64,000 nt of DNA from Candidatus Binataceae bacterium (GTDB lineage Bacteria > Desulfobacterota > Binatia > Binatales > Binataceae), in assembly GCA_963722605.1 (NCBI GenBank), contig CAVRNO010000004.1, forward strand, positions 410,335 to 474,334, read 5' to 3'. Shown piece by piece: positions 17,252 to 39,085 of this stretch. The notes below the pieces were generated by a model, which made no database searches, was not told the DNA's origin, and saw only the letters and a program-made list of their open reading frames with translations. Within the stretch, counting starts at the first letter, position 1. Each line of letters begins with the position of its first letter. The translations under genes and the position numbers were made by a program.

Positions 17252-17264
17252 GAATCGGACTGCG

Positions 17265-18689
<1,425 letters not shown>

Positions 18690-23807: not shown

Positions 23808-24627
23808 CGATTCAGACCGCTATTATTTTCGGTTCTCGCTGGGACAGCGATACCTGCACGGCCTGGTGATCATAACCTTTCTGGGTCTTGCCGCCACCGG
23901 AATGACCTTGCGGTTCAGCGAGCGGGATTGGGCAAAGTGGCTGGCGGAAGCCATCGGCGGATTCACCGCAGTCCTATCTCTGCATAAGCTATGCGCGGTG
24001 CTCATATCAGCCGGCTTTATCTACCATGTTGGAGCGATCCTCTTCAGGGCGATAATCAAGAAGGAGCGGGGCCTCTTTTTGGGGCCATACTCGATGACTC
24101 CGCAGCCCAAGGACGCCATGGACCTTTTTGCGATGCTGCGCTGGTTTCTTTGGATGGGTCCGCGGCCCCAATTCGACCACTTTGCCTACTGGGAGAAGTT
24201 CGACTATTGGGCGGTGTTCTGGGGAATGGCGATTATCGGCATGACCGGCTACATGATGTGGTTCGGGCCTTTCTTTGCCCGCTACGTGCCCGGCTATGTC
24301 CTCAATATCGCGCTCCTGATTCACGGTGAGGAAGCTCTGCTCGCCGTCTGGTTCATCTTTATCGTCCACTTTTTTAATTCGCACCTGCGCCCTGAGGAAT
24401 TTCCGCTCGACCAGGTGATATTCACCGGCCGCGTCAGCGCTGGGGATTATCAGCACGAACGCCCGCTGGATTATTCGCGGCTTGGCGAGTCGGGCGCGCT
24501 TGAAACCTTGCGCGCCGACCCGCCTCCCCGTTGGCTCGAGAATTTCTCGCGGGTGATCGCGGTTATCTCAGTCGGAATCGGCTTTTCACTGCTGGTGCTT
24601 ACTGTGATCTCCTTTTGGGCTGAATAG
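23779..24627 (+). CDS. dihaem b-type cytochrome membrane subunit (FdnI/HydC/PhsC-like)
   Basis: Polytopic protein with conserved His in TM helices (…RYLHGLVIITFLG…, …HKLCAVLISAGFIYH…, …YWAVFWGMAIIGMTG…, …LLIHGEEALLAVWFIFIVHFFNSHL…). Overlaps the stop of the 11-haem gene by 29 nt. Confidence 0.65.
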   Translation: MAMEKAVNSNDSDRYYFRFSLGQRYLHGLVIITFLGLAATGMTLRFSERDWAKWLAEAIGGFTAVLSLHKLCAVLISAGFIYHVGAILFRAIIKKERGLFLGPYSMTPQPKDAMDLFAMLRWFLWMGPRPQFDHFAYWEKFDYWAVFWGMAIIGMTGYMMWFGPFFARYVPGYVLNIALLIHGEEALLAVWFIFIVHFFNSHLRPEEFPLDQVIFTGRVSAGDYQHERPLDYSRLGESGALETLRADPPPRWLENFSRVIAVISVGIGFSLLVLTVISFWAE

Positions 24628-24842
24628 GTGTGAATAGGTGTATGACCGGCGTTCACAGTTTTTTCGTAAGGGTCGCGCGGGCTTGTTTTTGCGGCCTGCC
24701 CGCCGTATGTTGACGCGCATCAAATTCCAGCATCCCATTGAGCTGGAGCGCCGGAACACCTGCGACAGATGCAGCAAAGGCGCAAGGCTTCAACGGGTGT
24801 GGAGAGACCTATGAACTCCGCTATCGCACAAGGAGAATCGCA

Positions 24843-25607
24843 ATGGTATCCGGCGTAGCGATCTTCATCGTCGCAATCTTTATTCTGAGCGGAGTTAAGG
24901 TTCTTAACGAATATCAGCGCGGCGTAATCTTCCGCCTGGGGCGGCTCGCGCCGCACCGCGGCCCGGGCATAGTTTACGTGATCCCGGTGATGGAGCGGAT
25001 GGTCCGCATCGATCTGCGTACGGTCACGCTCGACATCCCGCCGCAGGACGTAATCACCAAGGACAACGTGACCGTCAAAGTGAGCGCGGTGCTCTACTTC
25101 CGGGTGATCGATCCGTCGCGCGCGGTTACCGAGGTGGCAAATTACCTGTTCGCTACCATGCAACTCGCGCAGACCACGCTGCGCTCGGTAGGCGGACAGA
25201 CCGAGCTCGACGAACTCCTGAGCCAGCGCGACAAAGTCAACGCGCGCATCCAGGCGATCGTCGATGCCCAAACCGAGCCGTGGGGAATCAAGGTCATGCT
25301 CGTCGAGTTGAAGAACATTGATCTGCCGCAGGACATGCAGCGCGCCATCGCCGCACAGGCCGAGGCCGAGCGCGAACGGCGGGCCAAGGTGATCGCGGCC
25401 GAGGGCGAATTTCAGGCGGCGCAGCGTCTGGCCGAGGCGGCGGAAATCATGAGCAAAAGCCCCATCACGCTCCAGCTTCGCTACCTGCAGACGCTGGCCG
25501 AGATCGCGACCGAGCACAATTCGACCACCGTGTTTCCCCTCCCAATCGATCTGCTCGAGCCCTTTCGCAAGGTGACAGGCGCCGGCGACGCCGGCAAGCC
25601 GAAGTAA
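24843..25607 (+). CDS. SPFH/band-7 (stomatin/HflC-like) membrane protein
   Basis: [35 protein letters not shown]… N-terminal TM, SPFH core, coiled-coil [17 protein letters not shown]. Confidence 0.85.
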
Positions 25608-25804
25608 GGGGGAGAGAGCACCGCGCCGCCGTGGGGATGTGGCGCGCAGCAGTTGCAGCGTTGGCAATGATTTTGACGGCTGCGGGCAGCAGCGCGGGTG
25701 GCACATTCCGCGCTCGCGTGCAGGTCTTGGCAGACGGCCTGGGACGTGAAGAACGACTGCAGGAGGTCGGATGCCGATGGATTATTATGGCTGACAACTC
25801 AGCT

Positions 25805-25820
25805 TGGAATAAATATTGCT
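25805..25820 (+). promoter_or_regulatory. candidate sigma-54 (-24/-12) promoter upstream of cytochrome c paralog 3
   Basis: TGGAATAaaatATTGCT has GG and TTGC at the consensus 10 nt spacing but a weak -24 hexamer. Confidence 0.3.
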
Positions 25821-25969
25821 AATGCTTAAGCGAAGCGGATGAAGCAAGGGTAATCTATAACGAAAGTCAGAACGAGACGAATGTTACCATGTATCGACCG
25901 AATACACTTGTAGCCTTTCGTCACGATTTTTGGTAACGAAGCGAAAATTTGGAGAAAACAAGGAGCGAA

Positions 25970-26377
25970 ATGATCATGTCAGAAAATTCACCGGTGAAGA
26001 TTCGATCGAAAAGCTGGGGCTGGATACCCTCGGCGGCAGCACTAGCGTTGGTTTTAGCGCCGGCCTTGATCTCAACCGCCGCCCGCGCCGACGATCTGAA
26101 AGCCGCAGCCAGCAACTACACGGAGTCGTGCGCGGGTTGTCATGGCGCGACCGGCAAAGGCGACGGACCCAAGGCCGCGAAACTATCGGTGAAAGTGGGA
26201 GACCTGACCGATTGCGCGAAGATGGGCAAGGTCAGCGACGACGTCCTCCTCAAGGTGATCAAAGAGGGCGGCCCGGCGGCCAACCTCAACAAGGCGATGA
26301 CGGGGTTCGGCGATGCCTTTGAAGACAACGACATCAAAGGTCTGGTCGCCTATATCCGCAGTTTTTGCGCGAAGTGA
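25970..26377 (+). CDS. periplasmic monoheme class I cytochrome c (paralog 3)
   Basis: AAGGAG RBS 25960-25965, ATG 25970 or 25976. Signal peptide, CAGCHG, same fold as paralogs 1 and 2 (…GDLTDCAKMGKVSDD…LVAYIRSFCAK). Confidence 0.8.
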   Translation: MIMSENSPVKIRSKSWGWIPSAAALALVLAPALISTAARADDLKAAASNYTESCAGCHGATGKGDGPKAAKLSVKVGDLTDCAKMGKVSDDVLLKVIKEGGPAANLNKAMTGFGDAFEDNDIKGLVAYIRSFCAK

Positions 26378-26483
26378 AGCGGCGATTTCCAACCGGCTGC
26401 ATCGGTCGGAATCAGCGTGCCGACCGATGGGCGAATAGGTGGCAGGAATCGCAAGGAAATTGAATTGGCTGTGTGGATCTTTG

Positions 26484-26499
26484 TGGCATGCCCATTGCT
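26484..26499 (+). promoter_or_regulatory. sigma-54 (-24/-12) promoter of ACIII/Qrc-like operon
   Basis: TGGCATGcccaTTGCT, a near-perfect match to TGGCACG-N4-TTGCW, 45 nt upstream of ATG 26544. Confidence 0.6.
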
Positions 26500-26543
26500 C
26501 CGCCCTCCAAACTGAGATTATCGATTTGAGGTCATCCATCCAT

Positions 26544-27098
26544 ATGAGGGCGACGCCTTGGAGCACGGCATTTCTGCTGCTGCTATGCGGCTCCGCGTTG
26601 ATGCTAGGCGGCTGCAACTGGACGGTCCCGTGGTTCGGGCCGCCGGCGGCGGTGGAACAACCCATTGCTTTCAACCATCGCAAGCATGCCGCCGGTGCCG
26701 ACGGCATCAAATGCGATACCTGTCACAGCTATAGCTCCGCCACCACCGGAACGTTTGCCGGGCTTCCCCAAGTGGACACCTGCATGGATTGCCACAAGAT
26801 GGTGATGCGGATGCCACCGAAGAAGCTGGCGAAGAAACCGCAGTTCGCCAAGCTCAAGCAGTTCGTCGTCCTCGGCCGCATCCCGTGGGAGCGAGTATAT
26901 GCCGAGCCTGACTATGTCTATTTCTCCCACCGCCGCCACGTCGCAGTCGCGAAACTCGCTTGCGCGAACTGCCACGGCGACGTGCGCAATATGGTCGAAC
27001 CGGTTATGAGTCCGGTGGTCAATCAGTCGATGAATTGGTGCATGAATTGCCATCAACAGAAACGCGCCTCGCAGGATTGCATCGCGTGCCACAAATGA
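26544..27098 (+). CDS. pentahaem c-type cytochrome lipoprotein (ActA/QrcA-like electron-transfer subunit)
   Basis: Starts MRATPWSTAFLLLLCGSALMLGGC (lipobox). CDTCH, CMDCH, CANCH, CMNCH, CIACH; 184 aa. Confidence 0.7.
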   Translation: MRATPWSTAFLLLLCGSALMLGGCNWTVPWFGPPAAVEQPIAFNHRKHAAGADGIKCDTCHSYSSATTGTFAGLPQVDTCMDCHKMVMRMPPKKLAKKPQFAKLKQFVVLGRIPWERVYAEPDYVYFSHRRHVAVAKLACANCHGDVRNMVEPVMSPVVNQSMNWCMNCHQQKRASQDCIACHK

Positions 27099-29416
27099 AG
27101 CACCCGGCGGAAGAGCAAAACGCATTGCCGCGCGGCGACGGCGAGCAGCGAGGGATTGCCCGGCGCGATTTCCTCAAGCTGGCCGGCGCAGGCACGGTCG
27201 CGGCCGCGGTCGCCTCGACCGCGGTGGCGCACGCTGTTTCCGGCGCGCTGGAGGTCCGCGAGGACGAGTTTCCGCAGGGCGGGCCGGAATCCGTCATGGT
27301 GTCGCTGTGCGGGATGTGCCCGCAGCGATGTTCGATGACGGTGCGCGAAATCTCAGACCGGGCGGTTGCGGTCAAGGGCAATCCGCTCGATCCCAGCAAT
27401 CGCGGCGGCCTATGCCCGGTGGGCCAAGCCATCCTGCAACTGGTCTACAACCCCGACCGGGTGCGCAGTCCGATGGTGCGGGAGGGCGATCCAAATGCTC
27501 CGCGATGGCGCGAGATAAGCTGGGCCGAGGCGATCGCGCTGATCAAGAGCCGGCTTGAGGCGATCCGCTCCGGCGCCGGAGCGCATACCGTGGTGGCAAT
27601 CGGCGATGGCACGTCGGAGTTGTCGGGACTGATGATGGCGCGATTGCTGCGCGCCTATGGCTCGGCGAATTTCATCGCCGACGAGTCCGCACAGCCTTCG
27701 CACGGGCAGGATTTGACCCAGGCCATCAATGGCCGGGTGGCCTACGATTTCGAGAACAGCCGCTACATCCTGAGCTTTGCCGCACCGTTGGTGGAAGCCT
27801 GGATGTCGCCGGTGCGCCAGATGCGCGACATCGCGGATTTTCGCGCAGGATGGCTCGGCGAGCGCGGCAAGCTGGTGCAGATCGAGAGCCGCCTTTCAGC
27901 TACCGCGGCCAAGGCCGACGAGTGGATCCGGGTGAACCCCGGCACCGAGGGTGTGCTGGCGCTCGGGATCGCCGGCGTGCTGGTCAGATACCAGTTGTAC
28001 GACGCCGGGTTCGTGAAAGACCATGTGGCCGGCTTTGAGAATCCGCCCAATGAGAAATCGGTGCGCGGCCTGCGCGAGGTGGTCCTCCAAGACTATGATC
28101 CCGCCAAAGTTGCGGCCATCACCGGCGTCTCCAGCGAAGTGATCGTCCGGCTGGCGCATGAGTTTGCCCAGATGCGGCCCGCGCTGGCGGTGCCGCCGGG
28201 AGCGCGCCCCGGACGCCAAGACAAAGACTTTTTGGATGCGGCCACCCAGGCGCTGAACGCGCTGTCCGGCGCGATCGACCGGCCCGGGGGAGTGTTGGTA
28301 AACCGCGAACCGCCGCTGGCAGCCTGGGCGCCAATCAAACCGCAGCCTGATCAAGCCAAGCAGCCGCCCCTGCTCAAATTAAGCGAGCTTGCCGCCGCTG
28401 CCGAGGGGGGACATCCGTACCTTCCGAGCGCAGTGTTCGTGCTCGGGACCAATCCATTGTTCGGTTCCCAACCGATCCGGCCGGACGTGTTTGACCGGAT
28501 TCCATTCAAAGTCGCCTTCACAACGCTGCTCGACGAAACCGCGGCCCACGCCGACCTGGTGCTGCCCGACTGCACTTCGCTGGAGCGATGGGAAATCCGC
28601 ACGGCGACCCCGGGATATGCCCTGACCTCGGTCGGAGTTGGCAGCCCGGCGATCGCTCCCCTTTACGGTTCGCGCCCGGCGGCACAGGTGATCCTGGACC
28701 TGGCAAAGGCGATGGGAGGCGAGGTGGCCGGCGCGCTGGCGTGGAGTGATCCGGGCCAGGCGGTGAAGGAAATGCTTGTGGGGCTGCATGGCGCTGCGCA
28801 CGGCGAGATTTTCTCCGAGCGCTTCCGCCGCGAATACACGCGCCCGGAAATGAGGGCGTGGGGCTGGCCGGCGGATGCTTCGATCAAGCGTGATGAATTC
28901 GTTGAGCTGGTCATCAAACGCGGCGGCTGGATGGACCCGCGCTATTCGTTCGGAGACTACCAGTCGGTCTTGAAGACTCGGTCGGGCAAATTCGAGATGC
29001 CGGAGTTGCTGGGCTCCCCACCGCCGGTGGTTGCAGGCCAGCCCGGCTATCCGTTGGACCTCAATTTTTTCCAGCCGATCGCCTTGATGAGCACCATGGG
29101 GGCAAATCTGCCATACTTGCAGGAGGTGGCGGGCGCTCCCGAGGACTGGCCATGGGATTCTTACATAGAGATCAACCCTGCCACCGCTACCGCGCTCGGA
29201 ATCGACGACGGCGACTGGGTGGTGGTGGTATCGCCCATCGCGCAGATCGAACTGCAAGCTCACCTCTATCCGGGAGCGATGCCCAACGTGGTGAACATAC
29301 CGCTCGGCCAAGGGCATACTTCCCTGGGCCATTGGGCTAGCGGGCGCGGCGTCAACCCGTTCAAGCTGCTGCCCGAGGGCGGCGGCCCAGTGAAAGTGCG
29401 GATCGTAAAGAGATAG
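27095..29416 (+). CDS. molybdopterin-oxidoreductase-family large subunit (PsrA/ActB1/QrcB-like), Tat-exported
   Basis: Starts MKHPAEEQ… (ATGA overlap). Tat motif RRDFLKLAGAGTVAAAVA, N-terminal C-x2-C-x3-C…C cluster motif (SLCGMCPQRCS…GGLCPVGQ), ~770 aa with the CISM/DMSO-reductase-family fold. Confidence 0.75.
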   Translation: MKHPAEEQNALPRGDGEQRGIARRDFLKLAGAGTVAAAVASTAVAHAVSGALEVREDEFPQGGPESVMVSLCGMCPQRCSMTVREISDRAVAVKGNPLDPSNRGGLCPVGQAILQLVYNPDRVRSPMVREGDPNAPRWREISWAEAIALIKSRLEAIRSGAGAHTVVAIGDGTSELSGLMMARLLRAYGSANFIADESAQPSHGQDLTQAINGRVAYDFENSRYILSFAAPLVEAWMSPVRQMRDIADFRAGWLGERGKLVQIESRLSATAAKADEWIRVNPGTEGVLALGIAGVLVRYQLYDAGFVKDHVAGFENPPNEKSVRGLREVVLQDYDPAKVAAITGVSSEVIVRLAHEFAQMRPALAVPPGARPGRQDKDFLDAATQALNALSGAIDRPGGVLVNREPPLAAWAPIKPQPDQAKQPPLLKLSELAAAAEGGHPYLPSAVFVLGTNPLFGSQPIRPDVFDRIPFKVAFTTLLDETAAHADLVLPDCTSLERWEIRTATPGYALTSVGVGSPAIAPLYGSRPAAQVILDLAKAMGGEVAGALAWSDPGQAVKEMLVGLHGAAHGEIFSERFRREYTRPEMRAWGWPADASIKRDEFVELVIKRGGWMDPRYSFGDYQSVLKTRSGKFEMPELLGSPPPVVAGQPGYPLDLNFFQPIALMSTMGANLPYLQEVAGAPEDWPWDSYIEINPATATALGIDDGDWVVVVSPIAQIELQAHLYPGAMPNVVNIPLGQGHTSLGHWASGRGVNPFKLLPEGGGPVKVRIVKR

Positions 29417-29424
29417 GAATTAGT

Positions 29425-30123
29425 ATGGGACAGTCGATGCCGCGATGGGGAATGGTGATCGATCTCGACCGGTGCACCGGATGCCGCGGGTGCGTGGTCG
29501 CCTGCAAGCAGGAGAACAACATCGCCCCCTCGACCCAGGAACAAGCTGAGTCCAGCCGCATGATCTCGTGGATCAACGTGATCACGGTGATGGAAGGCGA
29601 TTACCCGGACGCCAAGCTGCGGATGCTTCCGATGCTGTGCCAGCAGTGCGAAAATCCCCCGTGTGTGCGGGTGTGTCCGGTCGGAGCGACCCAGAAGAGT
29701 TTGCAGGGGATCGTCGGCCAGATTTACCCGCGGTGCATCGGCTGCCGTTACTGCGCCTCCGCCTGCCCGTACCAGGTCAAGTACTTCAACTGGTTCCCGC
29801 CCAGTTGGCCGCGCGAATTTAAGCAATCGCTGAATCCCGACGTATCTGTGCGGCCCAAGGGAGTGATCGAGAAGTGCACGTTTTGCGTTCAGCGCCTTCA
29901 GCGCGCCCGCGATCAGGCCGCCTTCGAAGGGCGCAAGGTGCGCAGCGAAGGCGAGTTCGTTCCGGCGTGCGTGGAAAGCTGCCCGGCCAAGGCGATGTAT
30001 TTCGGCGACCTCGACGATCACACGACCGAAGTCGCCCACCTATCGCGCGACTCGCGAGCCTTTCGGGTAATGGACGAGCTGGGGACCGCGCCAAACATCA
30101 TTTACTTAAAAGAGAGCACCTAG
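29425..30123 (+). CDS. 4Fe-4S ferredoxin-type subunit (PsrB/NrfC/ActB2/QrcC-like)
   Basis: Four Cys clusters (CTGCRGCVVAC, CQQCENPPCVRVC, CIGCRYCASAC, CTFC…C…C). Confidence 0.8.
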   Translation: MGQSMPRWGMVIDLDRCTGCRGCVVACKQENNIAPSTQEQAESSRMISWINVITVMEGDYPDAKLRMLPMLCQQCENPPCVRVCPVGATQKSLQGIVGQIYPRCIGCRYCASACPYQVKYFNWFPPSWPREFKQSLNPDVSVRPKGVIEKCTFCVQRLQRARDQAAFEGRKVRSEGEFVPACVESCPAKAMYFGDLDDHTTEVAHLSRDSRAFRVMDELGTAPNIIYLKEST

Positions 30124-31479
30124 GTGGAAAACCGCGATTCAGAGCAAGATGCGATTCTCTTCGAGCCGGTGCTAAAGACCGGGCCCGGATATTGGCTCTT
30201 GATCTTTGTGTTGGTCAGTATCGTCTTGTGGGCGGTGTATGCATACGTGACCCAGTTTCGCCTGGGGCTGGGGGTTACAGGGCTCAACCGGCCCGTATAC
30301 TGGGGCTTCTACATTACCAATTTCGTCTTTTTTGTCGGTATCAGCCATGCCGGGACGCTGATTTCGGCGATTTTGCGGCTATGCCAGGCCGAATGGCGCC
30401 GGCCGATAACCAGGATGGCCGAGGCGATTACGGTGCTGGTCCTGTTTTTCGGCGCCGGCAACATCCTGCTCGACCTCGGGCGGCCGGACCGGCTGCTTTA
30501 CATGTTCCGTTACGGTCACCTCACTTCGCCCCTCATGTGGGACTGTATCAGCATCACGATCTATCTCTGCGGCAGCACGACCTATTTGTACGTCGCGATG
30601 ATTCCCGACCTGGCGCTCTTGCGCGACCGGATCACGGATTGGCGCCAGCCGATCTATCAGGTGCTCGCGCTGGGATGGAACGGAAGCCATGAGCAGGAGC
30701 AGCGGCTGCAGACCGCGATTGCGATCCTGGCGATCGCCGTCATTCCGATTGCGGTTTCCGTCCATACGGTGGTGTCGTGGGTATTTGCGATGACGATCCA
30801 GCCGATGTGGCACTCGAGTATTTTTGGGCCCTATTTTGTGGTGGGCGCGATTTACTCGGGCATCGCGGCGCTGATGCTGACGATGATTCTGCTGCGCAAA
30901 ATTTACCATCTGGAAGACTACCTGAAGGAAATCCACTTCGAGTATCTCGGCGAGTTGCTGCTGGCCATGTGTCTCTTATGGTTCTACTTCACGTTCGCCG
31001 AGTACCTGACGGCATTCTACGGGCGCGAGCCGGTCGAGATGAAGATCTTCTGGGCGAAGGTGACGGGACACTATGCGCCATACTTCTGGACGATGGTGGT
31101 GACAGACTTTGTCATTCCCCTGTCGATCCTGTGCAACGGCAAGACGCGCAAGATTCCCGGAATCGCGGTGGCCTCGGTATCGGTGTGCATCGGCATGTGG
31201 CTGGAGCGTTTCACGATCGTCGTGCCAACCCTGGTCAATCCGCGCCTGCCTTGGGCGCGGGGTTCGTATGCCCCGTCCTGGGTGGAGATTTCGCTGTTTG
31301 CCGGTTTCATCGCGGGATTTATCCTGCTTTATGCGATTTTCATCAAACTGTTCCCGATCATTTCCATTTGGGAAATACGCGAGGGACGCGAGCAAGGTGT
31401 CGCGGAAGTCACCGAGCGGTTACGCGGCTACCTGCCGGGCGACGGCGGGCTTGACCAGCCTGCTAAAGCCGGATCCTGA
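30124..31479 (+). CDS. NrfD/PsrC-family polytopic membrane quinone-interacting subunit (ActC/QrcD-like)
   Basis: GTG start directly after the upstream TAG. …GLGVTGLNRPVYWGFYITNFVFFVGISHAGTLISA… NrfD signature, ~10 TM, 451 aa. Confidence 0.8.
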   Translation: MENRDSEQDAILFEPVLKTGPGYWLLIFVLVSIVLWAVYAYVTQFRLGLGVTGLNRPVYWGFYITNFVFFVGISHAGTLISAILRLCQAEWRRPITRMAEAITVLVLFFGAGNILLDLGRPDRLLYMFRYGHLTSPLMWDCISITIYLCGSTTYLYVAMIPDLALLRDRITDWRQPIYQVLALGWNGSHEQEQRLQTAIAILAIAVIPIAVSVHTVVSWVFAMTIQPMWHSSIFGPYFVVGAIYSGIAALMLTMILLRKIYHLEDYLKEIHFEYLGELLLAMCLLWFYFTFAEYLTAFYGREPVEMKIFWAKVTGHYAPYFWTMVVTDFVIPLSILCNGKTRKIPGIAVASVSVCIGMWLERFTIVVPTLVNPRLPWARGSYAPSWVEISLFAGFIAGFILLYAIFIKLFPIISIWEIREGREQGVAEVTERLRGYLPGDGGLDQPAKAGS

Positions 31480-31559
31480 TCGGAATATCGAGGCTTGGAC
31501 ACGGGAGGCTTGCGCGCGCCGGCTGCGCGCGCTGGGCACTCCCCGCAACGGGAGATAAT

Positions 31560-31955
31560 GTGAAGCGGTTGGCAATTACAGCGGCAAGCCTGACGATCGC
31601 GGGCGCTCTACTACTGGCCGCCACCGGTCCGTGCATCGCGCAGGACTTGGCGGCGGCAAAGGGCAAATTCGATTCTCTCTGCGTCAAATGCCACGGAGTG
31701 TCCGCAAAGGGTGACGGGCCTGCGGCCGCGACGCTGGTGACCAAACCGGGAGACCTGACGGATTGCACCAAGATGCGTGAGGTTACCGACGACACGCTCT
31801 TCAAGATCATCAAAGATGGCGGCTCGGTGGCCGGTTTCGACCAGGCGATGCAAGGGTTCAGCGAGGGATTGAGCGACGACGAAATCAGGGGTCTAGTCGC
31901 CTACATCCGCAATTTCTGCGACCACCCGACGCCCGTCGCCGCAAGCCAACGCTAG
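31560..31955 (+). CDS. periplasmic monoheme class I cytochrome c (paralog 4, ActE position)
   Basis: GTG start with GGGAGA RBS, signal peptide, CVKCHG, …GDLTDCTKMREVTDD…LVAYIRNFCDH. Confidence 0.75.
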   Translation: MKRLAITAASLTIAGALLLAATGPCIAQDLAAAKGKFDSLCVKCHGVSAKGDGPAAATLVTKPGDLTDCTKMREVTDDTLFKIIKDGGSVAGFDQAMQGFSEGLSDDEIRGLVAYIRNFCDHPTPVAASQR

Positions 31956-32054
31956 CGGATTAAGCGGCGGGCGGGGCGCCAGTCGCGCTGATTTCCTGTT
32001 TCATTCCCGGCCTTTGCGCCCAGATCGCGCCCTCCATCTCCTCGATCGGAAAAT

Positions 32055-32092
32055 AAAAAGGGCCGCGGGATTTTCGCCCGCGGCCCTTTTGG
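32055..32092. terminator. bidirectional intrinsic terminator between convergent operons
   Basis: AAAAGGGCCGCGGG-attttcg-CCCGCGGCCCTTTT, perfect 10 bp GC stem flanked by A/T runs on both sides. Confidence 0.7.
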
Positions 32093-32124
32093 AAATCGGC
32101 CTTTTGACGGTTCACAAGACCGCG

Positions 32125-33480
32125 TCACCCGGGCGGGCGAACGGTCTCTCCACCCAGGTAGAACTGGTGCTGCGCTGCGGCGGCGCCGGCGAACCCGTAG
32201 CCTGCGCGTTCCTGCTCTTGCACCGTTCGCGCCCTGCGCGGCGGGATGCCGAAGACCAGGCCCATCCCCGCCAGAAACACCAGGCAACCAAGCGAGTACA
32301 CCCCGGCCATCAGCGACCATTCCAGCGTTGTTGGCGCGTAGGAGGAGACGGCGCCCGTGAAAGCGGCGGGCCGCATCAACGAAGGCAGCAGCAGGTAGAG
32401 GCGCTCGGCAAACACCCCCACGACCACCAGCAGCGAGGCTACTCCGATGGTGGCGGTCGCCCGCTTGCTCTTCGGTAGCCCGAGCAACAAAAGCGGGATC
32501 AGCAGGCCTACGACCGCGTCGAACCAGAAGATCTTGGAGAAGCGGCCGAAGAGCAGCTCGTTGAACACCGCAAGGTGGGGCACGGTTCCCGAGTATCCGA
32601 CGGTCAGAAATTCGGTGAAGATCATATACATCAGCACCAGGATCGCGACAATCAAGTACCGCGCCAGCATCCGTACGGATTCTTCAGCGACCGGAAACTT
32701 AAACAACCGGCGCCCAACGATCATCGACAGCATGACCATGGCAAACCCCGAGACCAGCGCGGAGGCAATGAACAGGGGCGCCAGGATCGAGGTGTTCCAG
32801 CCGGGCTGGCCTTTTACCAGTCCCAGAATCCATGCGGTCACGGAATGGAGCGCCACCGCGGCCGGGACCGAAATGATCGCAAGCACGCTCAGGCAGCGAT
32901 GGTCCCATTCCAGGGAGCGGGGAGAGAGGCTGGTGTGGCCCAGAGTTGCCAACTCCACCAGGGGACGCAGCGACGGATGATCCTGGAGGCGTTGCACCAA
33001 CTGCTGGCGCGCGCTGAAGTACAACAGCGCGAGACACAGAATCAGGTAGCATGAGATCACGGAGCAATCCCACAATAGCGGCGATTCAATGTTCGGGTGG
33101 CGAAACACGTTGAGCATGTACAGCGGCCGTCCGAGATCCATGATGATGAAGCAAGCGGCCAGGACGAGGAAGCTCGCCGCCAGAATTTCAGACATTATCG
33201 CAACCGGCTTCATCTCTTTCTTGTCGAGCAGATGGACCAGCGCGGAAACTGCTATTCCGCCGGCGCTCAAGCCGACGCAGAATATGAAATTGGCGATATA
33301 CAGGCCCCAGAACACTGGTCGGTTGAGCCCCGTCACTCCCAGCCCCTCAGTGAACTGCTGGGAGTACATGTAAATGGCCCAGCCAATCAGCGCCCCGAAA
33401 ACCGCTGCCGCGGCCCAATAGGGGGTCCGGCTGCCTCTTGGGACGTCCATCGTCCCATTCAATTGGTCATTGTAATTCAT
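32125..33480 (-). CDS. second NrfD-family polytopic membrane protein (ActF-like), no partner Mo/FeS genes
   Basis: Starts MNYNDQLNG… (ATG 33480, GAGGAGAAAGGGA RBS). …GLGVTGLNRPVFWGLYIANFIFCVGLSAGGIAVSA… paralogous to 30124..31479. Confidence 0.75.
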   Translation of the reverse strand: MNYNDQLNGTMDVPRGSRTPYWAAAAVFGALIGWAIYMYSQQFTEGLGVTGLNRPVFWGLYIANFIFCVGLSAGGIAVSALVHLLDKKEMKPVAIMSEILAASFLVLAACFIIMDLGRPLYMLNVFRHPNIESPLLWDCSVISCYLILCLALLYFSARQQLVQRLQDHPSLRPLVELATLGHTSLSPRSLEWDHRCLSVLAIISVPAAVALHSVTAWILGLVKGQPGWNTSILAPLFIASALVSGFAMVMLSMIVGRRLFKFPVAEESVRMLARYLIVAILVLMYMIFTEFLTVGYSGTVPHLAVFNELLFGRFSKIFWFDAVVGLLIPLLLLGLPKSKRATATIGVASLLVVVGVFAERLYLLLPSLMRPAAFTGAVSSYAPTTLEWSLMAGVYSLGCLVFLAGMGLVFGIPPRRARTVQEQERAGYGFAGAAAAQHQFYLGGETVRPPG

Positions 33481-33491
33481 TCCCTTTCTCC

Positions 33492-33674
33492 TCAACCGCT
33501 GACGGCTGCCAGCACCAGCACTCCCATCGCTGCCGCCGTCAATAACACGGACAGTCCGATCAGGATGTTAATGACCACGAAGAAAGTTCGGCCTTCATCA
33601 GCATGCGCGGCGTCGCTAACATGCGTGGCACCGCTAACATGTGCGGCGGCGTTAAGATGCGTGGCGGCGTTCAT
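33492..33674 (-). CDS. small single-TM protein with His-repeat N-terminal tail
   Basis: MNAATHLNAAAHVSGATHVSDAAHADEGRTFFVVINILIGLSVLLTAAAMGVLVLAAVSG; ATGA overlap with the upstream gene. Three roughly 18 nt DNA repeats encode the A(A/T)H(V/A)S units. Confidence 0.5.
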   Translation of the reverse strand: MNAATHLNAAAHVSGATHVSDAAHADEGRTFFVVINILIGLSVLLTAAAMGVLVLAAVSG

Positions 33675-33931
33675 CGTCCTGCCGCCGCTGTCCTATGAAC
33701 ATTTCCGAGTCCCGAAGCCGACCCTCGATGGGCGCCTGTCGCCATCCCGTGCGCGCCTCGCAGCGTGAATACCGCTGCAACAGCGAGCGGGGCAACGGCG
33801 ATCAATCCCATCTGGCCCACGACTGCCCAGTCCACGTATCCATACTGGTAGGTGCTGAGCAGCACGGTCAGGACGTTGATCCAGACGAAGATCGCAACGG
33901 CGATCCCAACGGCAGTTCTTTTGGCGTTCAT
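33671..33931 (-). CDS. small two-TM membrane protein
   Basis: MNAKRTAVGIAVAIFVWINVLTVLLSTYQYGYVDWAVVGQMGLIAVAPLAVAAVFTL…; ATGA overlap with the cupin gene. Confidence 0.5.
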   Translation of the reverse strand: MNAKRTAVGIAVAIFVWINVLTVLLSTYQYGYVDWAVVGQMGLIAVAPLAVAAVFTLRGAHGMATGAHRGSASGLGNVHRTAAAGR

Positions 33932-34311
33932 GATCGTTCATCTCCTTGCTGAATGTCTGCGCCCTCGCGTGCGAAGAACAAGCTGACGAGCTTCGCCCGC
34001 GTGGGAGCTGGGTTCACAATTCTGTAGGGACCCGGCTGGTCGAGGCACAGCCAATGGCCGGGAAGCAATTCCCAACTCTGATCGTCTCGCTGGATGACTG
34101 GCTGGCCTTCGACCACCAGATGCCAGGAGCAACCCGCCCACAACGAAGGCTCAGCGAGAGTTGCACCGCCACCGATCTCGATTGCCAGCACCTCCAGGTT
34201 CTCACGCTGATAGAGGACACTGATCTTGGCATCCTGGCGCTGAACCGAACGCAGCGCCGTGCCGCTTCCGATTACGGGCGCCGTATGCCCAATTGCTCCA
34301 TGCAGGTCCAT
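33928..34311 (-). CDS. cupin-domain protein
   Basis: 127 aa, …GQPVIQRDDQSWELLPGHWLCLDQPGPYRIVN… small beta-barrel cupin signature; first gene after the sigma-54 promoter. Confidence 0.6.
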   Translation of the reverse strand: MDLHGAIGHTAPVIGSGTALRSVQRQDAKISVLYQRENLEVLAIEIGGGATLAEPSLWAGCSWHLVVEGQPVIQRDDQSWELLPGHWLCLDQPGPYRIVNPAPTRAKLVSLFFAREGADIQQGDERS

Positions 34312-34353
34312 CTGCCAATCTCCTCGCGTATCGAGGTACTACAGACCTCTATC

Positions 34354-34368
34354 GCAAGCAGGGTGCCA
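34354..34368 (-). promoter_or_regulatory. sigma-54 (-24/-12) promoter driving cupin / small TM / NrfD-like operon
   Basis: Minus-strand TGGCACCctgcTTGC (plus strand GCAAgcagGGTGCCA), about 45 nt upstream of the cupin ATG. Confidence 0.6.
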
Positions 34369-34516
34369 GCGGATCGAGCAGGGAGCCTTGCAAATAAGGC
34401 TTGAGATTGCTGGAGATTTTAGAGCGGCGGTGCGAGCGGGTGGGCGGTACCCTTACAAAATGTAACCAAGGCCAGGAATTACAGAAATACTATTTCAAAA
34501 TGAAACAGTCCAAGTA

Positions 34517-35890
34517 TCATCGCTCCTCTTCATCATTTTCCTTAGACAACTTCCGCCATAGGGTTACTGATGATACGCCGAGAATTTCGGCGGCGCGGGT
34601 GCGATTGCCACCGCAGGCATCGAGTACCTTTCGAATATGCTCGGATTCCATCTCGCGCAAGCTGCGTAAGGGGTTTACGGGCGCTGGCTCACGATGCGGT
34701 TGCTCCGCGTGCAGGCTCGGGGGCAGTTGAGCCTGACGGATGGGTTCTCCGGGCGTGGCGAAAATCACAGCGCGCTCAACGACATTACGCAGTTCGCGCA
34801 CATTGCCCGGCCAATCGTGGTCAGCCAAGGCCGCGAGCACCTCGGGGGAGAAATCGAGCGGCGCCTTCTTAAGTTCGTGGGCGTAGAATGCCAGGAAGTG
34901 GCGAGCCAGCGGTATGATGTCTTCGGGACGCTTGCGCAACGCCGGCACCTCCAACTGGACGACGTTTAGGCGCCAGTAGAGGTCTTCGCGGAACCTGCCG
35001 GCCTTGATTTCCTGTTCGAGGCTTTTGTTGGTCGCCGCTATGATCCGGACGTCAACGTCCATCGATTCTTCCGAACCCACCCGCTTGATCTGGTGCTCTT
35101 CCAGGGCGCGGAGGATCTTGGCCTGCATCTCGACCGGCATTTCTCCGATCTCGTCGAGGAACAGGGTCCCGCCGTTGGCTAGCTCCCAGCTGCCGCGCCG
35201 GCTGTAGACCGCGCCGGTGAACGCGCCGCGGCGATGGCCGAAAAGTTCCGATTCAAGCAAGTTGGGCGGGATAGCGGCGCAGTTGACGGTGACGAACGGA
35301 TGACCCTTGCGCGGGCTTTCGGCATGGATGAAACGCGCGATCACCTCCTTGCCGGAACCGCTCTCGCCGACCACTAGCACGCTGCTATCGGTGGCCGCCA
35401 CGGTTTTCGCCAGCCTGAACAGACGCTGCATCGCCTCGCTCTGGCCGATCACCACACCGTCGCCGAACAGATTTTGCAGCTCAAGCTTCAAATAGACGTT
35501 TTCGTCGAGCAGCCGCTTCTGCTCCATGGCCCGGGCGATCACATGTCTAAGCTGGTCGGGAGTGAAAGGCTTGGGCAGATAGTCCGTCGCCCCCATCTTG
35601 ATCGCGGCCACCGCGGACTCAATGGTCGCGTAACCGGTGATCATGACGACGATCGTACCGGGACAGGTTTGCTTGATATGTTCGAGCAGCGCCATGCCGT
35701 CCATGCCCGGCAGCTTGATGTCGCACAGCACGAGGTCCACCGGACCGCGCTCGAGCCTGTCTTGGGCGGCTTCGGCGCTGCCCGCAACCTCGACCGAGTA
35801 GCCCACCCGCTCCAGCGCCTTCTTGACCGATTCGACCACGTTGCGCTCGTCGTCAACCGCCAAGATCCTTCCCAACGGCGTCTCGCTCAT
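34517..35890 (-). CDS. sigma-54-dependent response regulator (NtrC family)
   Basis: REC (…ILAVDDERN…DLVLCDIKLPGMDG…), AAA+ GESGSGKE…GAFTGA, Fis-type HTH. Confidence 0.9.
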   Translation of the reverse strand: MSETPLGRILAVDDERNVVESVKKALERVGYSVEVAGSAEAAQDRLERGPVDLVLCDIKLPGMDGMALLEHIKQTCPGTIVVMITGYATIESAVAAIKMGATDYLPKPFTPDQLRHVIARAMEQKRLLDENVYLKLELQNLFGDGVVIGQSEAMQRLFRLAKTVAATDSSVLVVGESGSGKEVIARFIHAESPRKGHPFVTVNCAAIPPNLLESELFGHRRGAFTGAVYSRRGSWELANGGTLFLDEIGEMPVEMQAKILRALEEHQIKRVGSEESMDVDVRIIAATNKSLEQEIKAGRFREDLYWRLNVVQLEVPALRKRPEDIIPLARHFLAFYAHELKKAPLDFSPEVLAALADHDWPGNVRELRNVVERAVIFATPGEPIRQAQLPPSLHAEQPHREPAPVNPLRSLREMESEHIRKVLDACGGNRTRAAEILGVSSVTLWRKLSKENDEEER

Positions 35891-37551
35891 GCCTTCAGCT
35901 CCGTCGAAAGTGGAAGCACGATTCTTACGGTAGTTCCACCCTGGCCGTCGGGACCGGCCGCCTCACGGGTGCAGCTTTCCATCTCAAGTCGGCCCATGTG
36001 CTCCTCGATTATGCCGTAACTGATCGAAAGTCCGAGCCCGGTGCCCTCGCGTTTAGTGGTGAAAAACGGCTCGAATACCCGCGAACGGTTCTCCTCCGAT
36101 ATTCCAACGCCAGTGTCCTTGACCTCGATCGTCAGCGAATTGCCGGTGAGCTGTGCACTGACCGACAGGCGGCCTCCGCTTTCCATCGCCTGGGCGGCGT
36201 TAACGAACAGGTTGGTGAAAACCTGCACCATTCGCTCGGAGTCCCAGAAAACTTCGGGAAGGCCGGCTTCGATTCGGCGCTCAACGCTGATGCCGCGGAG
36301 TTCGATTTCATGCTCGGCCAGCCGCAACGCCTGATCGATCACATCCTCAGGCCTGCATAGCGCCTTGCGCAGGTCGTGGCGGCGCGAAAAAGCGCGCAAG
36401 TCCTCGATGATGCGCCTGCAACGGCCGGCATCTTCGTCGATCCTCTTAAGCTCACCGTAAAGCGGGGAGTCATGCCCGACCTCTTCGATCAGCAGGTTAG
36501 CGTTCATCAGGATGCCGGTCAGCGGGTTGTTGAGTTCATGGCACACGCCGCTGGCGAGCAACCCGAGCGAGGCGAGCTTCTCCGACTGGCGAAGCGCCTC
36601 GTCCTTTCGCTTCAGTTCCTCGGTCCGCCGCATGACGCGCTCCTCGAGGGTGCGGCTGTACCGGTTCAGCTGATCGCGATAGCGCTGTACCTCCTCCACC
36701 ATCGCGTTGAACGACAGGGCCAGTTCACCGATCTCGCCCAATCCGACCATCACTCGGTATCCCCAGTCTCCCGCCCTGACGCGGCGAGTGCCCTGGAGCA
36801 GACTCTGGATGGGGCGCGAGACCCGGTCCGCCAGGAAGGCCGCGATGCACGAGCCCATCACCACCACCGCAACGCTTACCAGGATCATCAGCGTCAATGC
36901 GCGCTCGCTCAGCGCCTGCGACTGTTCGCGCAAGACCGCGACCCGTTTGACCAGGATGTCCGCCATCGTCTGGAGTCGGTGACTTATCCCGGAAACCAGC
37001 AGGTCGACATCGTCCGCCTCGCCCGGGCGGGATGACTGTACGCTCGGGCCCGCGGCGTCGAAGACCTTGAGGCCTTTGATCCGGAGCCGCTCGAACTTGG
37101 GGCTGAGTGAAGCCGCCATCTCTTTGGTCGTCAACAGCGAGTTCCCGTGACAGGAGGCCGAGGCGCATGACGTGAGTTGCTGCTGTGCCGAATGCACCGC
37201 GCCCTCGAACTCCTGCGGGCCGCCGTCGCGCCGGTGCAGCAGGAAAGCCCCCACCGTCGCGTCTGCCCTAAAGAGTGCCAGTTGTATATGGTCGGTGGCC
37301 TCGAGCGACAGGCTGATTTCGTCGAGTTGGCGGTTGACGGCGACCAGCGAGCGGATCGAATAGATCGTGAAAAGCCCCAACAGGATCGTCCCTGGTATGG
37401 TGGCGATTAGGTAGCCTAGTATGAAACGGCGGGTCAGATTCCCCCTGCGGGCCTTATTCTGAAGCTCGCTCTGCGGCTTGGAATTGTCGTCGTGGTTGGT
37501 ATTGATCGGGCCCGCGCTGGAGACGAGCGCCGCTGGCGCGTCGGGAATCAC
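35887..37551 (-). CDS. membrane sensor histidine kinase (2 TM, periplasmic domain with CX4CH motif, HAMP, HisKA, HATPase)
   Basis: TM1 …FILGYLIATIPGTILLGLFTIYSI…, periplasmic ~150 aa including QLTSCASASCHGNS (nt ~37147-37170), TM2 …LTLMILVSVAVVVMGSCIAAFL…, then …SGVCHELNNPLTGI… H-box and N/G boxes. Confidence 0.85.
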   Translation of the reverse strand: MIPDAPAALVSSAGPINTNHDDNSKPQSELQNKARRGNLTRRFILGYLIATIPGTILLGLFTIYSIRSLVAVNRQLDEISLSLEATDHIQLALFRADATVGAFLLHRRDGGPQEFEGAVHSAQQQLTSCASASCHGNSLLTTKEMAASLSPKFERLRIKGLKVFDAAGPSVQSSRPGEADDVDLLVSGISHRLQTMADILVKRVAVLREQSQALSERALTLMILVSVAVVVMGSCIAAFLADRVSRPIQSLLQGTRRVRAGDWGYRVMVGLGEIGELALSFNAMVEEVQRYRDQLNRYSRTLEERVMRRTEELKRKDEALRQSEKLASLGLLASGVCHELNNPLTGILMNANLLIEEVGHDSPLYGELKRIDEDAGRCRRIIEDLRAFSRRHDLRKALCRPEDVIDQALRLAEHEIELRGISVERRIEAGLPEVFWDSERMVQVFTNLFVNAAQAMESGGRLSVSAQLTGNSLTIEVKDTGVGISEENRSRVFEPFFTTKREGTGLGLSISYGIIEEHMGRLEMESCTREAAGPDGQGGTTVRIVLPLSTELKA

Positions 37552-37966
37552 TCGCGCGCCCTAGAACTCGACCCGGATGGAGCTGTTGAATCGGAGCTGC
37601 AAAGTCCATTTTTGCGCCTCATCCACCAGCTGCCTCTTCCACACCACCTCAAGGCGCATCCAAACCCGCATCGATCAGGACTCTTCGAGGATCTTATCAA
37701 ATCGGTAGACGAATTCGAAAACGGAAATCCGGCTTAAGAAAATGCTTGGCCGCCCATAGGCAACCAAGCATACATAACCACTTACATGATTAGGCGATGC
37801 GCAGAGAAAATTCAAGCGGGCGGGCGCATGTCTAGTCGCCAGGGATGAATCGTGATGCTGCGAACCGAGCCCGGCCTTTTCGCCGCTCGGGGCCGTGCGC
37901 CCATTGTCAAAACTTGTTCGATGCAAGCGGGAGCGCATATACTCGAAATGGTCAGGTGATGTATCC

Positions 37967-39085
37967 ATGATGCCCTCGATTGACTTCGCGAAAGCGCCCT
38001 TTCTGGTTATCTGGGAAACGACTCAGGCGTGCGACCTCGCCTGCAGCCATTGCCGCGCCTCGGCTCAGCCGCTGCGCCATTGCGACGAGCTGAACACCGC
38101 GCAAGGCTTCGCGCTGCTTGCCGAGGCCGCCGCGATGGGCACTCCGGTGTTCATCCTGAGCGGTGGCGACCCGCTCAAACGCCCCGACCTGTTCGGCCTC
38201 GTGCGCGAGGGCAAGCGGCTCGGTCTGCGCATGGGAACCATCCCCGCGGCGACTCCGGCGCTGACTGCGGCCGTGGTCCGCCAGTTGAAGGAGGCGGGCC
38301 TGGACCAGATGGCGCTGAGCCTCGATTATCCGCGCGCTGACCTTCACGACGGTTTCCGCGGAGTGCCGGGGGCCTTCAAGAAGACCATGGCGGCCGTCGA
38401 ATGGGCGCGCGAATGCGGCCTGCCGCTGCAGATCAACACGACGCTGTGGGCTGGTTCGGCGCCGTTTCTGTCCGAGATGGCCGAGTTGGTCGAACGTCTT
38501 GGAGCGGTCTTCTGGGAGGTGTTCTTCCTGGTCCCGATGGGTCGCGGCGAGGCCCTCGACGGCGTCGCGGCAAGCCAGTGCGAGGAACTGTTCGCCGTCT
38601 TATACGCGGTTCAGAAAAAGTCCCACTTCGTCGTCAAGGTGACCGAGGCGCCCCACTACCGGCGCTTTGTTGCGCAACACGAGGCGGAAAGCACGGGCAA
38701 GCAGCACCAGGTCCACCCCGGCTCGGTCGCGATGCCCGACATGCTTCGCCGATCGGAAGGTCCCGGGCACACCGTCGGGCTTGCGCCTCACAGCGTCAAC
38801 GCCGGCAAGGGCTTTGTCTTCGTGTCCCACACCGGCGAGGTCTATCCGAGCGGATTCCTGCCGATTTCTGCCGGCAACGTGCGTGAGCAAAGCTTGACCG
38901 CAATTTATCGCGACTCCGAGCTCTTCCGCACGCTGCGCGATCCCGCCGCGCTGCATGGCCGATGCGGGCGGTGCGAGTATAGCTCCTTCTGCGGCGGCTC
39001 GCGCTCGCGCGCCTACGCGCTGACCGGCGACTTTCTCGCGACTGACCCGTGGTGCAACTACCAACCGGCCCGCTCCGCCGCCTAG
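37967..39085 (+). CDS. radical SAM / SPASM-domain protein (AhbC/AhbD/NirJ-like)
   Basis: MMPSIDFAKAPFLVIWETTQACDLACSHCRA… CxxxCxxC, C-terminal Cys-rich SPASM region …CGRCEYSSFCGGSRSRA…; TTGTTC-18-TATACT promoter at ~37913-37942. Confidence 0.7.
   Translation: MMPSIDFAKAPFLVIWETTQACDLACSHCRASAQPLRHCDELNTAQGFALLAEAAAMGTPVFILSGGDPLKRPDLFGLVREGKRLGLRMGTIPAATPALTAAVVRQLKEAGLDQMALSLDYPRADLHDGFRGVPGAFKKTMAAVEWARECGLPLQINTTLWAGSAPFLSEMAELVERLGAVFWEVFFLVPMGRGEALDGVAASQCEELFAVLYAVQKKSHFVVKVTEAPHYRRFVAQHEAESTGKQHQVHPGSVAMPDMLRRSEGPGHTVGLAPHSVNAGKGFVFVSHTGEVYPSGFLPISAGNVREQSLTAIYRDSELFRTLRDPAALHGRCGRCEYSSFCGGSRSRAYALTGDFLATDPWCNYQPARSAA

Follow-up and report, generated by a model that had tools for sequence, protein, structure and literature searches.

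In this work we describe a four-gene operon on the minus strand of a 64-kb stretch of a Candidatus Binataceae genome (this whole stretch is called the window below). The operon encodes a cupin-like protein, a two-helix membrane protein of 86 residues (s86), a single-helix membrane protein of 60 residues (s60) and a large membrane protein of the NrfD family (NrfD2). It lies across a hairpin from a convergent plus-strand operon that has an NrfD gene of its own (NrfD1) and is similar to the operons for Qrc and for alternative complex III (ACIII). The explanation that we favour, at a probability of roughly 45%, is that the minus-strand genes encode a separately induced, quinone-reactive membrane arm, together with novel accessory subunits, for a Qrc/ACIII-like quinone:cytochrome c oxidoreductase.

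Many anaerobic respiratory enzymes rely on NrfD-type subunits in the membrane for energy coupling. How these subunits link the chemistry of quinones to the movement of protons is under debate (PMC8076601, PMC13059093). New here are an unclassified NrfD subfamily, three undescribed accessory proteins, one of which is predicted to be a membrane-tethered cytoplasmic cupin, and a dedicated sigma-54 switch on a Qrc/ACIII-like gene cluster. The subfamily is distinct and exists in two natural states, either within a molybdenum-iron-sulfur (Mo-FeS) operon or split off with the three small subunits and its own predicted sigma-54 switch. It is genetically linked to MtrA/MtrB-PioB porin-cytochrome genes and to multihaem cytochromes in Binataceae, Gemmatimonadota, Acidobacteriota and related uncultured groups, and these gene neighbourhoods point to the module being the inner-membrane step of extracellular electron transfer in soil and groundwater bacteria. 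We consider the relevance for bioenergetics and environmental microbiology to be moderate.

The genes of the operon, and the hairpin that follows them, are these.

34311-33928, minus strand: cupin-like open reading frame (ORF), 127 amino acids (aa), operon gene 1
33931-33671, minus strand: s86, protein with two transmembrane helices, 86 aa, gene 2
33674-33492, minus strand: s60, single-pass membrane protein, 60 aa, gene 3
33480 (ATG) to 32125 (stop), minus strand: NrfD2, 451 aa, gene 4
32056-32090, no strand: hairpin between the convergent operons, with a 14-bp GC-rich stem of which 10 pairs are GC, and A and T runs at its flanks

Our ORF calls agree with those of a preliminary description of the region, which had the four minus-strand ORFs and their coordinates right. 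It also had the genes coupled by ATGA overlaps, and this is true of two junctions, cupin/s86 and s86/s60. The s60/NrfD2 junction does not overlap; it is an 11-nucleotide (nt) spacer with a GGAG-type ribosome-binding site, GGAGAAAGGGA. The bidirectional terminator proposed there corresponds to the hairpin, which is followed by TATTTT on the minus strand and resembles such a terminator. No RNA family from Rfam was found within 25000-38500, and a sigma-70 scan of 31400-35000 returned no promoter-like site. In the closest relatives, Candidatus Binatus soli and a Binataceae metagenome-assembled genome, the gene order is identical and identity is 87-88%. The four minus-strand genes are a real, conserved operon.

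The conservation of the small genes extends well beyond these relatives (related loci and protein clusters used for comparison carry L- and P-numbers, respectively). A profile of s86 matched 12 species-level related loci in at least four lineages, with E-values of 1e-17 to 1e-42, and a profile of s60 matched the same 12, always directly upstream of the NrfD2 gene. The loci span Binataceae, Gemmatimonadota, Acidobacteriota, Tectomicrobia and unclassified 'Deltaproteobacteria'. A Methylomirabilales contig (L089) has ORFs of 124, 81 and 44 aa that match in order and size and were assigned on size and position, not on profile score. The preliminary description was thus right about the 86-aa two-helix and 60-aa one-helix proteins, which occur in other phyla in the same order; its concern that the small ORFs might be spurious is answered by the 12 loci found by profile, other phyla included.

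One could still suppose that the small genes are chance ORFs in GC-rich DNA and that NrfD2 is a decaying duplicate. There are many overlapping alternative-frame ORFs in the GC-rich DNA here, and the ratio of nonsynonymous to synonymous substitution rates (dN/dS) of s86 is about 1 against the two closest relatives. We regard this as extremely improbable, given profile matches of E 1e-17 to 1e-42 in other phyla with the same order and position, the invariant residues and natural cupin fusions described below, and dN/dS values of 0.14-0.39 in the other three genes, with NrfD2 intact and bearing a conserved family signature. Computed against the two closest relatives, L009 and L010, dN/dS is 0.14-0.23 for the cupin, 0.27-0.30 for s60 and 0.30-0.39 for NrfD2, with dS between 0.17 and 0.44 for these three. 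Spurious small ORFs are refuted by the cross-phylum conservation.

The central component of the operon is NrfD2. It matches the Pfam family NrfD (PF03916) with 174.7 bits, against a cut-off of 25.8, over profile positions 2-312 of 313, and has 10 helices in the fold of the NrfD/PsrC-family membrane subunits. There is no CxxCH motif and no redox cofactor motif in the protein. The best NCBIfam matches are DsrP (186 bits, cut-off 350) and QrcD (70 bits, cut-off 570); both are below threshold, so NrfD2 belongs to no curated subfamily. With NrfD1, the ActC-like subunit of the convergent operon, it shares 34% identity (E 1e-65), and the preliminary description was correct in calling the two paralogous. 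The same description called NrfD2 ActF-like, which the comparisons contradict. The chains of ActC are matched with E-values of 1e-30 to 1e-22 (108 bits) and those of ActF are not matched at E<=1e-3, while the AlphaFold2 (AF2) model (predicted template-modelling score, pTM, 0.77) has template-modelling (TM) scores of 0.73-0.75 to ActC and 0.58-0.60 to ActF.

The residues of the quinone site lead to the same conclusion. Aligning NrfD2 to Rhodothermus marinus ActC with HMMER gives the following correspondences.

ActC His139: NrfD2 D115, an Asp as in QrcD, DsrP and HybB
ActC Ser164: NrfD2 S133
ActC Asp169: NrfD2 D138
ActC His247: NrfD2 H212
ActC Glu394/Arg395: NrfD2 E359/R360
ActC His97, of the cytoplasmic half-channel: NrfD2 A73, within an invariant SAGG; NrfD1 retains the His
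ActC Asp253: Ile in NrfD2, Val in NrfD1

D115, S133, D138, H212 and E359/R360 are invariant in 16 NrfD2 orthologues. The quinol-site residues are those named in the ACIII structure paper and in a review of NrfD proteins (PMC5928083, PMC8076601). In ActC and QrcD the quinone site made up by the retained residues is on the periplasmic side. In QrcD, the S138A substitution abolishes function, that is electron transfer to menaquinone, and D120A retains 68% of activity (PMC13059093); these two residues are the equivalents of S133 and D115. ActF is the sole NrfD-like protein described without these quinone-site residues, and it does not bind quinone (PMC8076601; for the absence of the residues also PMC5928083). 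NrfD2 is, on its sequence and modelled fold, an ActC/QrcD-class subunit that probably reacts with quinone. We rejected an ActF identity on sequence and fold, because D115, S133 and D138 are present and because the gene is not in an actABCDEF operon.

Like ActC (PDB 6F0K, 6BTM, 6LOD and 8K9E), NrfD2 has the 10-helix fold, the Ser and Asp of the SPLLWD motif, the equivalent of His247 and the Glu-Arg pair of the periplasmic half-channel. It differs from ActC in that the identity is only 21-25%, His139 is replaced by Asp (as in QrcD and DsrP), His97 by Ala and Asp253 by Ile, and its gene stands apart from actA/B with a sigma-54 promoter of its own and three unrelated small genes. It also differs from NrfD1, as it is without the C-terminal amphipathic segment FPIISIWEIREGRE. 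With QrcD and DsrP it shares an Asp in transmembrane helix 2 and the conserved Ser of the quinone site.

Comparative gene context suggests what NrfD2 may be for. Orthologues, at 41-88% identity, were found in only 16 of the scanned species genomes; below this range, at 35% identity or less, the matches are other NrfD proteins. Together with three extra metagenome contigs these genomes provide 19 informative loci, many of them on short contigs whose ends limit the counts, and the loci are of two classes.

At the 13 class A loci, which include the window, s86 and s60 genes precede NrfD2, and a cupin gene does so too in 11. Here NrfD2 is in a separate operon, never within a Mo-FeS operon, and a sigma-54-type site precedes the module in 12/13. 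A second NrfD gene is nearby at 9/13, with an FeS gene also visible in six, and two of the 13 contigs are too short. The six class B loci (L012, L019, L020, L024, L090 and L091) lack the small genes, and each has a Mo-like/FeS pair with NrfD2 as the only NrfD beside it. The NrfD2 gene belongs to the Mo-FeS operon, or closes it, in four of them (L012, L024, L090 and L091). In the other two (L019 and L020) it faces a convergent Mo-FeS-cytochrome c operon without its own NrfD gene. The small proteins are hence present at the 13 separate-operon loci and absent from 6/6 sole-NrfD loci. The classes are not separate clades. Between class B and class A loci, NrfD2 is 72% identical and the FeS proteins 81% identical in Gemmatimonadota, and the corresponding values in Acidobacteriota are 74% and 76%. 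The preliminary description spoke of an NrfD without Mo/FeS partners; this holds for the operon in the window but not for the six loci where its orthologue is the sole NrfD beside a Mo-FeS pair. It also raised the question of whether the four-gene unit recurs beside act-like operons, and in many genomes the unit is indeed genetically tied to act/qrc-like operons.

Since class B NrfD2 is the only anchor beside an orthologous FeS and Mo-like pair, it must be the quinone-coupling anchor there. NrfD2 and the FeS protein of class A are close orthologues of those of class B, with the quinone site intact, so it is simplest to suppose that in the window, too, NrfD2 docks this type of FeS subunit. The favoured explanation is built on this. 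NrfD2 would dock, in the ActC position, the FeS subunit encoded across the terminator, forming a second, separately induced quinone-coupling arm that would act in parallel to NrfD1 or replace it. The proteins s86 and s60 would be dedicated membrane subunits of this arm, and the cupin would be a cytoplasmic domain held on s86. The small proteins accompany NrfD2 only at loci where its gene stands apart from the Mo-FeS operon. Their role is probably to stabilise, assemble or gate an NrfD2 that has to seek its periplasmic partner after translation. The timing of the arm may be set by the neighbouring sensor kinase, sensing the periplasmic redox state through a possible haem c site and so deciding when NrfD2 is made.

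Several observations weigh against this explanation. Two NrfD proteins would need to share a single Mo-FeS pair. A sigma-54-like promoter is present on the plus-strand operon as well, and the two operons may therefore simply encode co-expressed parts of one particle, as with ActC and ActF. His97 of the cytoplasmic proton half-channel of ActC is Ala in NrfD2, within the invariant SAGG, and the proton path of NrfD2 is unlike that of ActC and NrfD1. Two class A loci, L017 and L089, have neither Mo-FeS genes nor a second NrfD within 8-10 kb, which means that the module can be encoded apart from any partner. The context tallies come from only 19 loci, many on short contigs. Finally, the dN/dS of s86 is about 0.9-1.0 against L009 and L010, at an unusually low dS (0.11); it could be due to small-sample noise, to the variable C-terminal tail or to constraint at the level of DNA or RNA. 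This value does not outweigh the cross-phylum conservation of s86.

The composition of ACIII suggests another arrangement. ACIII contains two NrfD paralogues, a two-helix subunit with a cytoplasmic beta domain and a one-helix subunit (PMC5928083), and the predicted topology of the module is like that of ActF, ActD and ActG: a second NrfD paralogue, a two-helix subunit whose termini and beta-rich domain are in the cytoplasm, and a one-helix subunit. All products could then belong to one ACIII-like particle in which NrfD1 and NrfD2 stand for ActC and ActF, NrfD2 conducts protons without exchanging electrons with quinone, and the two-helix protein with its cupin and the one-helix protein take the roles of ActD and ActG. 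NrfD1 is far more ActC-like than NrfD2 (252 versus 108 bits), sigma-54-type promoters are found on both operons, and the cupin fusions would put the N-terminus of s86 in the cytoplasm, as in ActD. The second NrfD near 9/13 accessory-bearing loci (FeS visible in six), and the absence of the small proteins where NrfD2 is alone, fit as well. We find a single particle of this kind somewhat doubtful. Both the sequence and the modelled fold of NrfD2 are nearer to those of ActC than to those of ActF, and the arrangement does not account for a quinone site whose residues stay invariant even where a genome has two NrfDs. It also requires two docking modes, as orthologues that are 72-74% identical are the sole anchors elsewhere.

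Also against the single particle, a Pfam search with s86, the cupin and the 212-aa cupin-s86 fusion gave no match to ActD (DUF3341), even with the threshold relaxed to E<=10. ActD has a conserved Glu in transmembrane helix 2 (Glu122 in R. marinus), and s86 has no conserved acidic residue in that helix; its only conserved acidic residue, D34, is in the loop between the helices. The cytoplasmic domain here is a cupin, not the beta-alpha-beta sheet of ActD, and unlike the genes for ActD, ActF and ActG the NrfD2 module is on the opposite strand with a regulator of its own. Homology of s86 plus cupin to ActD was therefore rejected, on the lack of a DUF3341 match at E<=10 and on the finding of only 56 clusters of small relatives among 1.84 billion representatives. 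The resemblance to ActD, ActF and ActG drawn in the preliminary description survives for the predicted membrane layout of the cupin and two-helix pair, which is like that of ActD, and fails for homology to ActD and for NrfD2, which is not ActF-like.

A further possibility is a respiratory complex with two quinone-reactive NrfD subunits. This would be intermediate between dimeric Psr-type enzymes and the ActC/ActF pair, and the cupin, two-helix and one-helix subunits would couple or gate the second site under the control of a haem-sensing sigma-54 system. We think this unlikely. If true, such a complex could let the cell choose between oxidising quinol and reducing quinone, or change from one quinone pool to another in the course of extracellular electron transfer.

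Returning to the separately induced arm, its proposed accessory subunits can be described further. The 127-aa protein has only sub-threshold matches in Pfam (the best is Cupin_2, E 0.063), and a homologue, P0134, matches Cupin_2 at E 1e-5. Its AF2 model, from a 33-sequence alignment, is an all-beta barrel with a mean confidence (pLDDT) of 82 and a core above 90, and Foldseek aligned the model with dozens of cupins at probability 1.00 and TM scores of 0.6-0.7. The cupin assignment of the preliminary description is upheld by this fold and these matches, and the 127-aa protein is a cupin-fold protein, predicted to be cytoplasmic. The family has 48 clusters. Natural fusions of the cupin and the two-helix protein in a single polypeptide occur in L013, P0208 and P0214, in at least three lineages, and these put the N-terminus of s86 on the cupin side and suggest that the cupin lies on the cytoplasmic face of the membrane part.

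Among 33 cupin homologues the only invariant residues are L20, S22, E40, G69, N100 and R105. H64 is kept in 7/8 sequences and the other positions of the metal motif are not His, and the classical His/Glu metal-binding motif (His triad) is not conserved in the family. A metal-dependent enzymatic cupin is considered unlikely on this ground, and without a conserved metal site a structural or ligand-sensing role is likelier than catalysis. Similarity to ligand-binding cupins and AraC-type domains is weak.

A conserved short (F/Y)GY-x-D loop joins the two hydrophobic helices of s86. Three residues of s86 are invariant (S26, G31 and M41) and three more almost so (L25, D34 and P47). A profile search for its relatives among 1.84 billion representatives returned only 56 clusters, and s86 has no Pfam family. 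The single helix of s60 begins with a conserved (E/N)GR-x-FFVV-x-N-x-L-x-G motif, and its N-terminus carries a four-fold A-(T/A)-H-(L/V)-(N/S) repeat (33600-33674, minus strand). The preliminary description placed this His repeat at the tail of the protein; it is N-terminal and restricted to the Binatus-like loci (the window, L009 and L010), with orthologues from other lineages lacking it. Taken together, the three small families appear to be undescribed and to be without a Pfam family.

The features upstream of the operon bear on how it might be switched on.

34368-34354, minus strand: sigma-54 type -24/-12 promoter, TGGCACCCTGCTTGC, 42 nt 5' of the cupin ATG
34453-34465 and 34493-34505, no strand: two palindromic enhancer-like sites, TTACATTTTGTAA and TTTCATTTTGAAA respectively, 85-140 nt 5' of the promoter
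35890-34517, minus strand: NtrC-type sigma-54 activator with receiver, AAA+ sigma-54 interaction domain and Fis-type helix-turn-helix, directly 5' of the operon
37551-35887, minus strand: sensor histidine kinase with two transmembrane helices, periplasmic domain, HAMP, HisKA and HATPase, overlapping the activator gene

The promoter TGGCACCCTGCTTGC is the sole exact match to TGGCAC-N5-TTGC in the window. With one mismatch allowed there are 7 matches where 5.1 are expected, and in view of this weak count the support for the promoter comes instead from its position and its conservation. What the preliminary description called a near-perfect sigma-54 promoter is in fact exact consensus, and a site is kept at 12/13 loci.

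The two palindromes sit between the activator stop codon and the promoter, and the window has no other exact match to TTWCATTTTGWAA. Both align with conserved counterparts in L009, L010 and L011. Comparable palindromes are found about 100-160 nt 5' of the promoter in L021, L022 and L089, which are Acidobacteriota and Methylomirabilales loci, and single matches at 9 of 10 palindrome positions in L014, L015 and L023. The adjacent activator, we infer, binds the two palindromes. Its domains match Pfam Sigma54_activat (E 6e-73), Response_reg (E 9e-30) and HTH_8 (E 3e-14), and the kinase matches HAMP, HisKA and HATPase_c. A same-strand kinase and/or activator gene lies 5' of the module, mostly directly adjacent, at 11/13 accessory-bearing loci. 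The order of enhancer-like sites, -24/-12 promoter, cupin, s86, s60 and NrfD2 is the textbook layout, and by its sequence the minus-strand unit is predicted to be an enhancer-dependent sigma-54 operon. The kinase, the NtrC-type activator and the two palindromes were absent from the preliminary account, as was the sigma-54-like promoter of the plus-strand operon. Its claim of separate sigma-54 control is plausible, with the operon having its own promoter and palindromes, although sigma-54 control is common to the whole gene cluster. The idea of one enhancer shared by both sigma-54 promoters was rejected, as palindromes of the form TTWCA-N3-TGWAA are found only 5' of the cupin operon.

The periplasmic domain of the kinase has, at about residues 120-135, a C-x4-C-H motif (CASASCH here) that is invariant in 9/9 orthologues from several phyla. 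This spacing of haem attachment is seen in cytochrome c3. The motif may serve to attach a c-type haem; alternatively, its Cys and His residues may form a metal or redox site.

Geobacter offers an analogy: cbcBA encodes an RpoN-dependent inner-membrane quinone oxidoreductase and has the activator BccR. In both systems a dedicated sigma-54 activator adjoins quinone-linked membrane electron-transfer genes, which are used only under particular redox conditions. CbcBA is a cytochrome b/c complex, not an NrfD protein, and the likeness to the NrfD2 module is by analogy only. A radical-SAM/SPASM-domain gene (37895-39085, plus strand) is divergent from the kinase gene.

The regulatory genes invite a further suggestion, in which NrfD2, s86, s60 and the cupin form a stand-alone membrane complex without an FeS partner, for example a device that senses or transduces the state of the quinone pool or the proton-motive force and that either feeds back on the two-component system or is its output. 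The run of kinase, activator, cupin, s86, s60 and NrfD2 is the most stable unit across genomes, the flanks of L089 and L017 are without Mo-FeS genes or a second NrfD, and the cupin is weakly similar to ligand-binding cupins and AraC-type domains and has no metal triad. An activator gene beside its target operon is, on the other hand, the normal arrangement and needs no sensory role. Where flanks suffice, the genes clustered with the module are of Qrc/ACIII-like or NrfCD-like type or encode multihaem cytochromes, cytochrome b and Band-7 proteins. NrfD2 also retains its quinone-site and gating residues (E359, R360), as would suit a subunit that still works in energy coupling. We know of no precedent for an NrfD protein acting without an FeS partner, and we count this against a stand-alone complex, which we hold to be quite improbable.

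In the separately induced arm that we favour, the partner would come from the plus-strand operon, whose features are these.

26484-31955, plus strand: Qrc/ACIII-like operon, the likely periplasmic partner module
26484-26498, plus strand: sigma-54-like promoter, TGGCATGCCCATTGC, 45 nt 5' of 26544, where the pentahaem gene probably starts
26544-27098, plus strand: pentahaem lipoprotein, with five CxxCH motifs and a lipoprotein signal
27098-29416, plus strand: Mo-like subunit exported by twin-arginine translocation (TAT), nearest to ArrA/PsrA
29425-30123, plus strand: ActB2-like FeS subunit with four clusters, ActB match E 1e-56
30124-31479, plus strand: NrfD1, ActC-like, ActC match E 1e-73
31560-31955, plus strand: monohaem cytochrome c

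A longer pentahaem ORF begins at 26439, which is probably not the real start. The counterpart of TGGCATGCCCATTGC in L009 and L010 is a perfect TGGCAC-N5-TTGC at the same spacing, and no TTWCA-N3-TGWAA palindromes lie upstream of TGGCATGCCCATTGC. In the Mo-like subunit the TAT signal is retained, as is an N-terminal Cys motif for 4Fe-4S. Where ArrA has the Cys of SSVCAEAH, which we take to be the Mo ligand, the aligned residue of the subunit is not Cys (ADESAQPSH here), and this suggests a cofactor-less scaffold resembling QrcB and ActB1.

NrfD1 matches ActC chains with E-values of 1e-73 to 1e-65 (252 bits) and ActF chains weakly. Matches to the NCBIfam models for QrcA, QrcB and QrcC in this operon are sub-threshold. 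Like QrcABCD, the operon has a multihaem c, a Mo-like (non-Cys), an FeS and an NrfD gene; Qrc, the menaquinone reductase of sulfate reducers, differs in having one NrfD and no accessory membrane subunits, and the organisms here, unlike the hosts of Qrc and DsrMKJOP, are not known sulfate reducers. By its gene content the plus-strand operon is a quinone:cytochrome c module of the Qrc/ACIII type in which ActB is split and actD and actF are missing, a relative of Qrc and not an equivalog.

NrfD1 and NrfD2 are the only two NrfD genes in the 64 kb. Further upstream on the plus strand the cluster continues with these genes.

20861-22402, plus strand: NapC/NirT-like hexahaem cytochrome
22434-23807, plus strand: 11-haem cytochrome
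23779-24627, plus strand: cytochrome b
24738-25607, plus strand: Band-7 protein

The cytochrome b and Band-7 genes accompany the NrfD2 cluster in other genomes as well. In the window, multihaem cytochromes are present, and the ORFs examined included no MtrB-like porin. Three class B loci (L012, 4433-7586; L090, 2600-5759; L091, 692-4386) are adjoined by genes for a decahaem MtrA-like cytochrome and an MtrB_PioB porin (PF11854), and these neighbours point to extracellular electron transfer, with iron reduction or oxidation. Among the lower-scoring loci L025-L088, the 30 that were inspected (L025-L054) have FeS-NrfD pairs, some with a Mo subunit, and no act operons.

In L011 (11486-18057, on a contig shared with L002), a more distant Binataceae locus, the same-strand genes after the module encode multihaem cytochromes, an FeS protein and an orthologue of the cytochrome b. 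A divergent NrfD of 398 aa (25% identical) lies 3' of the module there, with no Mo-like subunit. This gene set indicates that the module is not tied to one fixed partner operon.

The window also hosts a second sigma-54 two-component system on the plus strand, with a kinase at 15518-17251 and an activator at 17148-18689. It is followed on its 3' side by a small TatA-like ORF at about 18780-19000, read by eye, and then by two monohaem cytochromes c.

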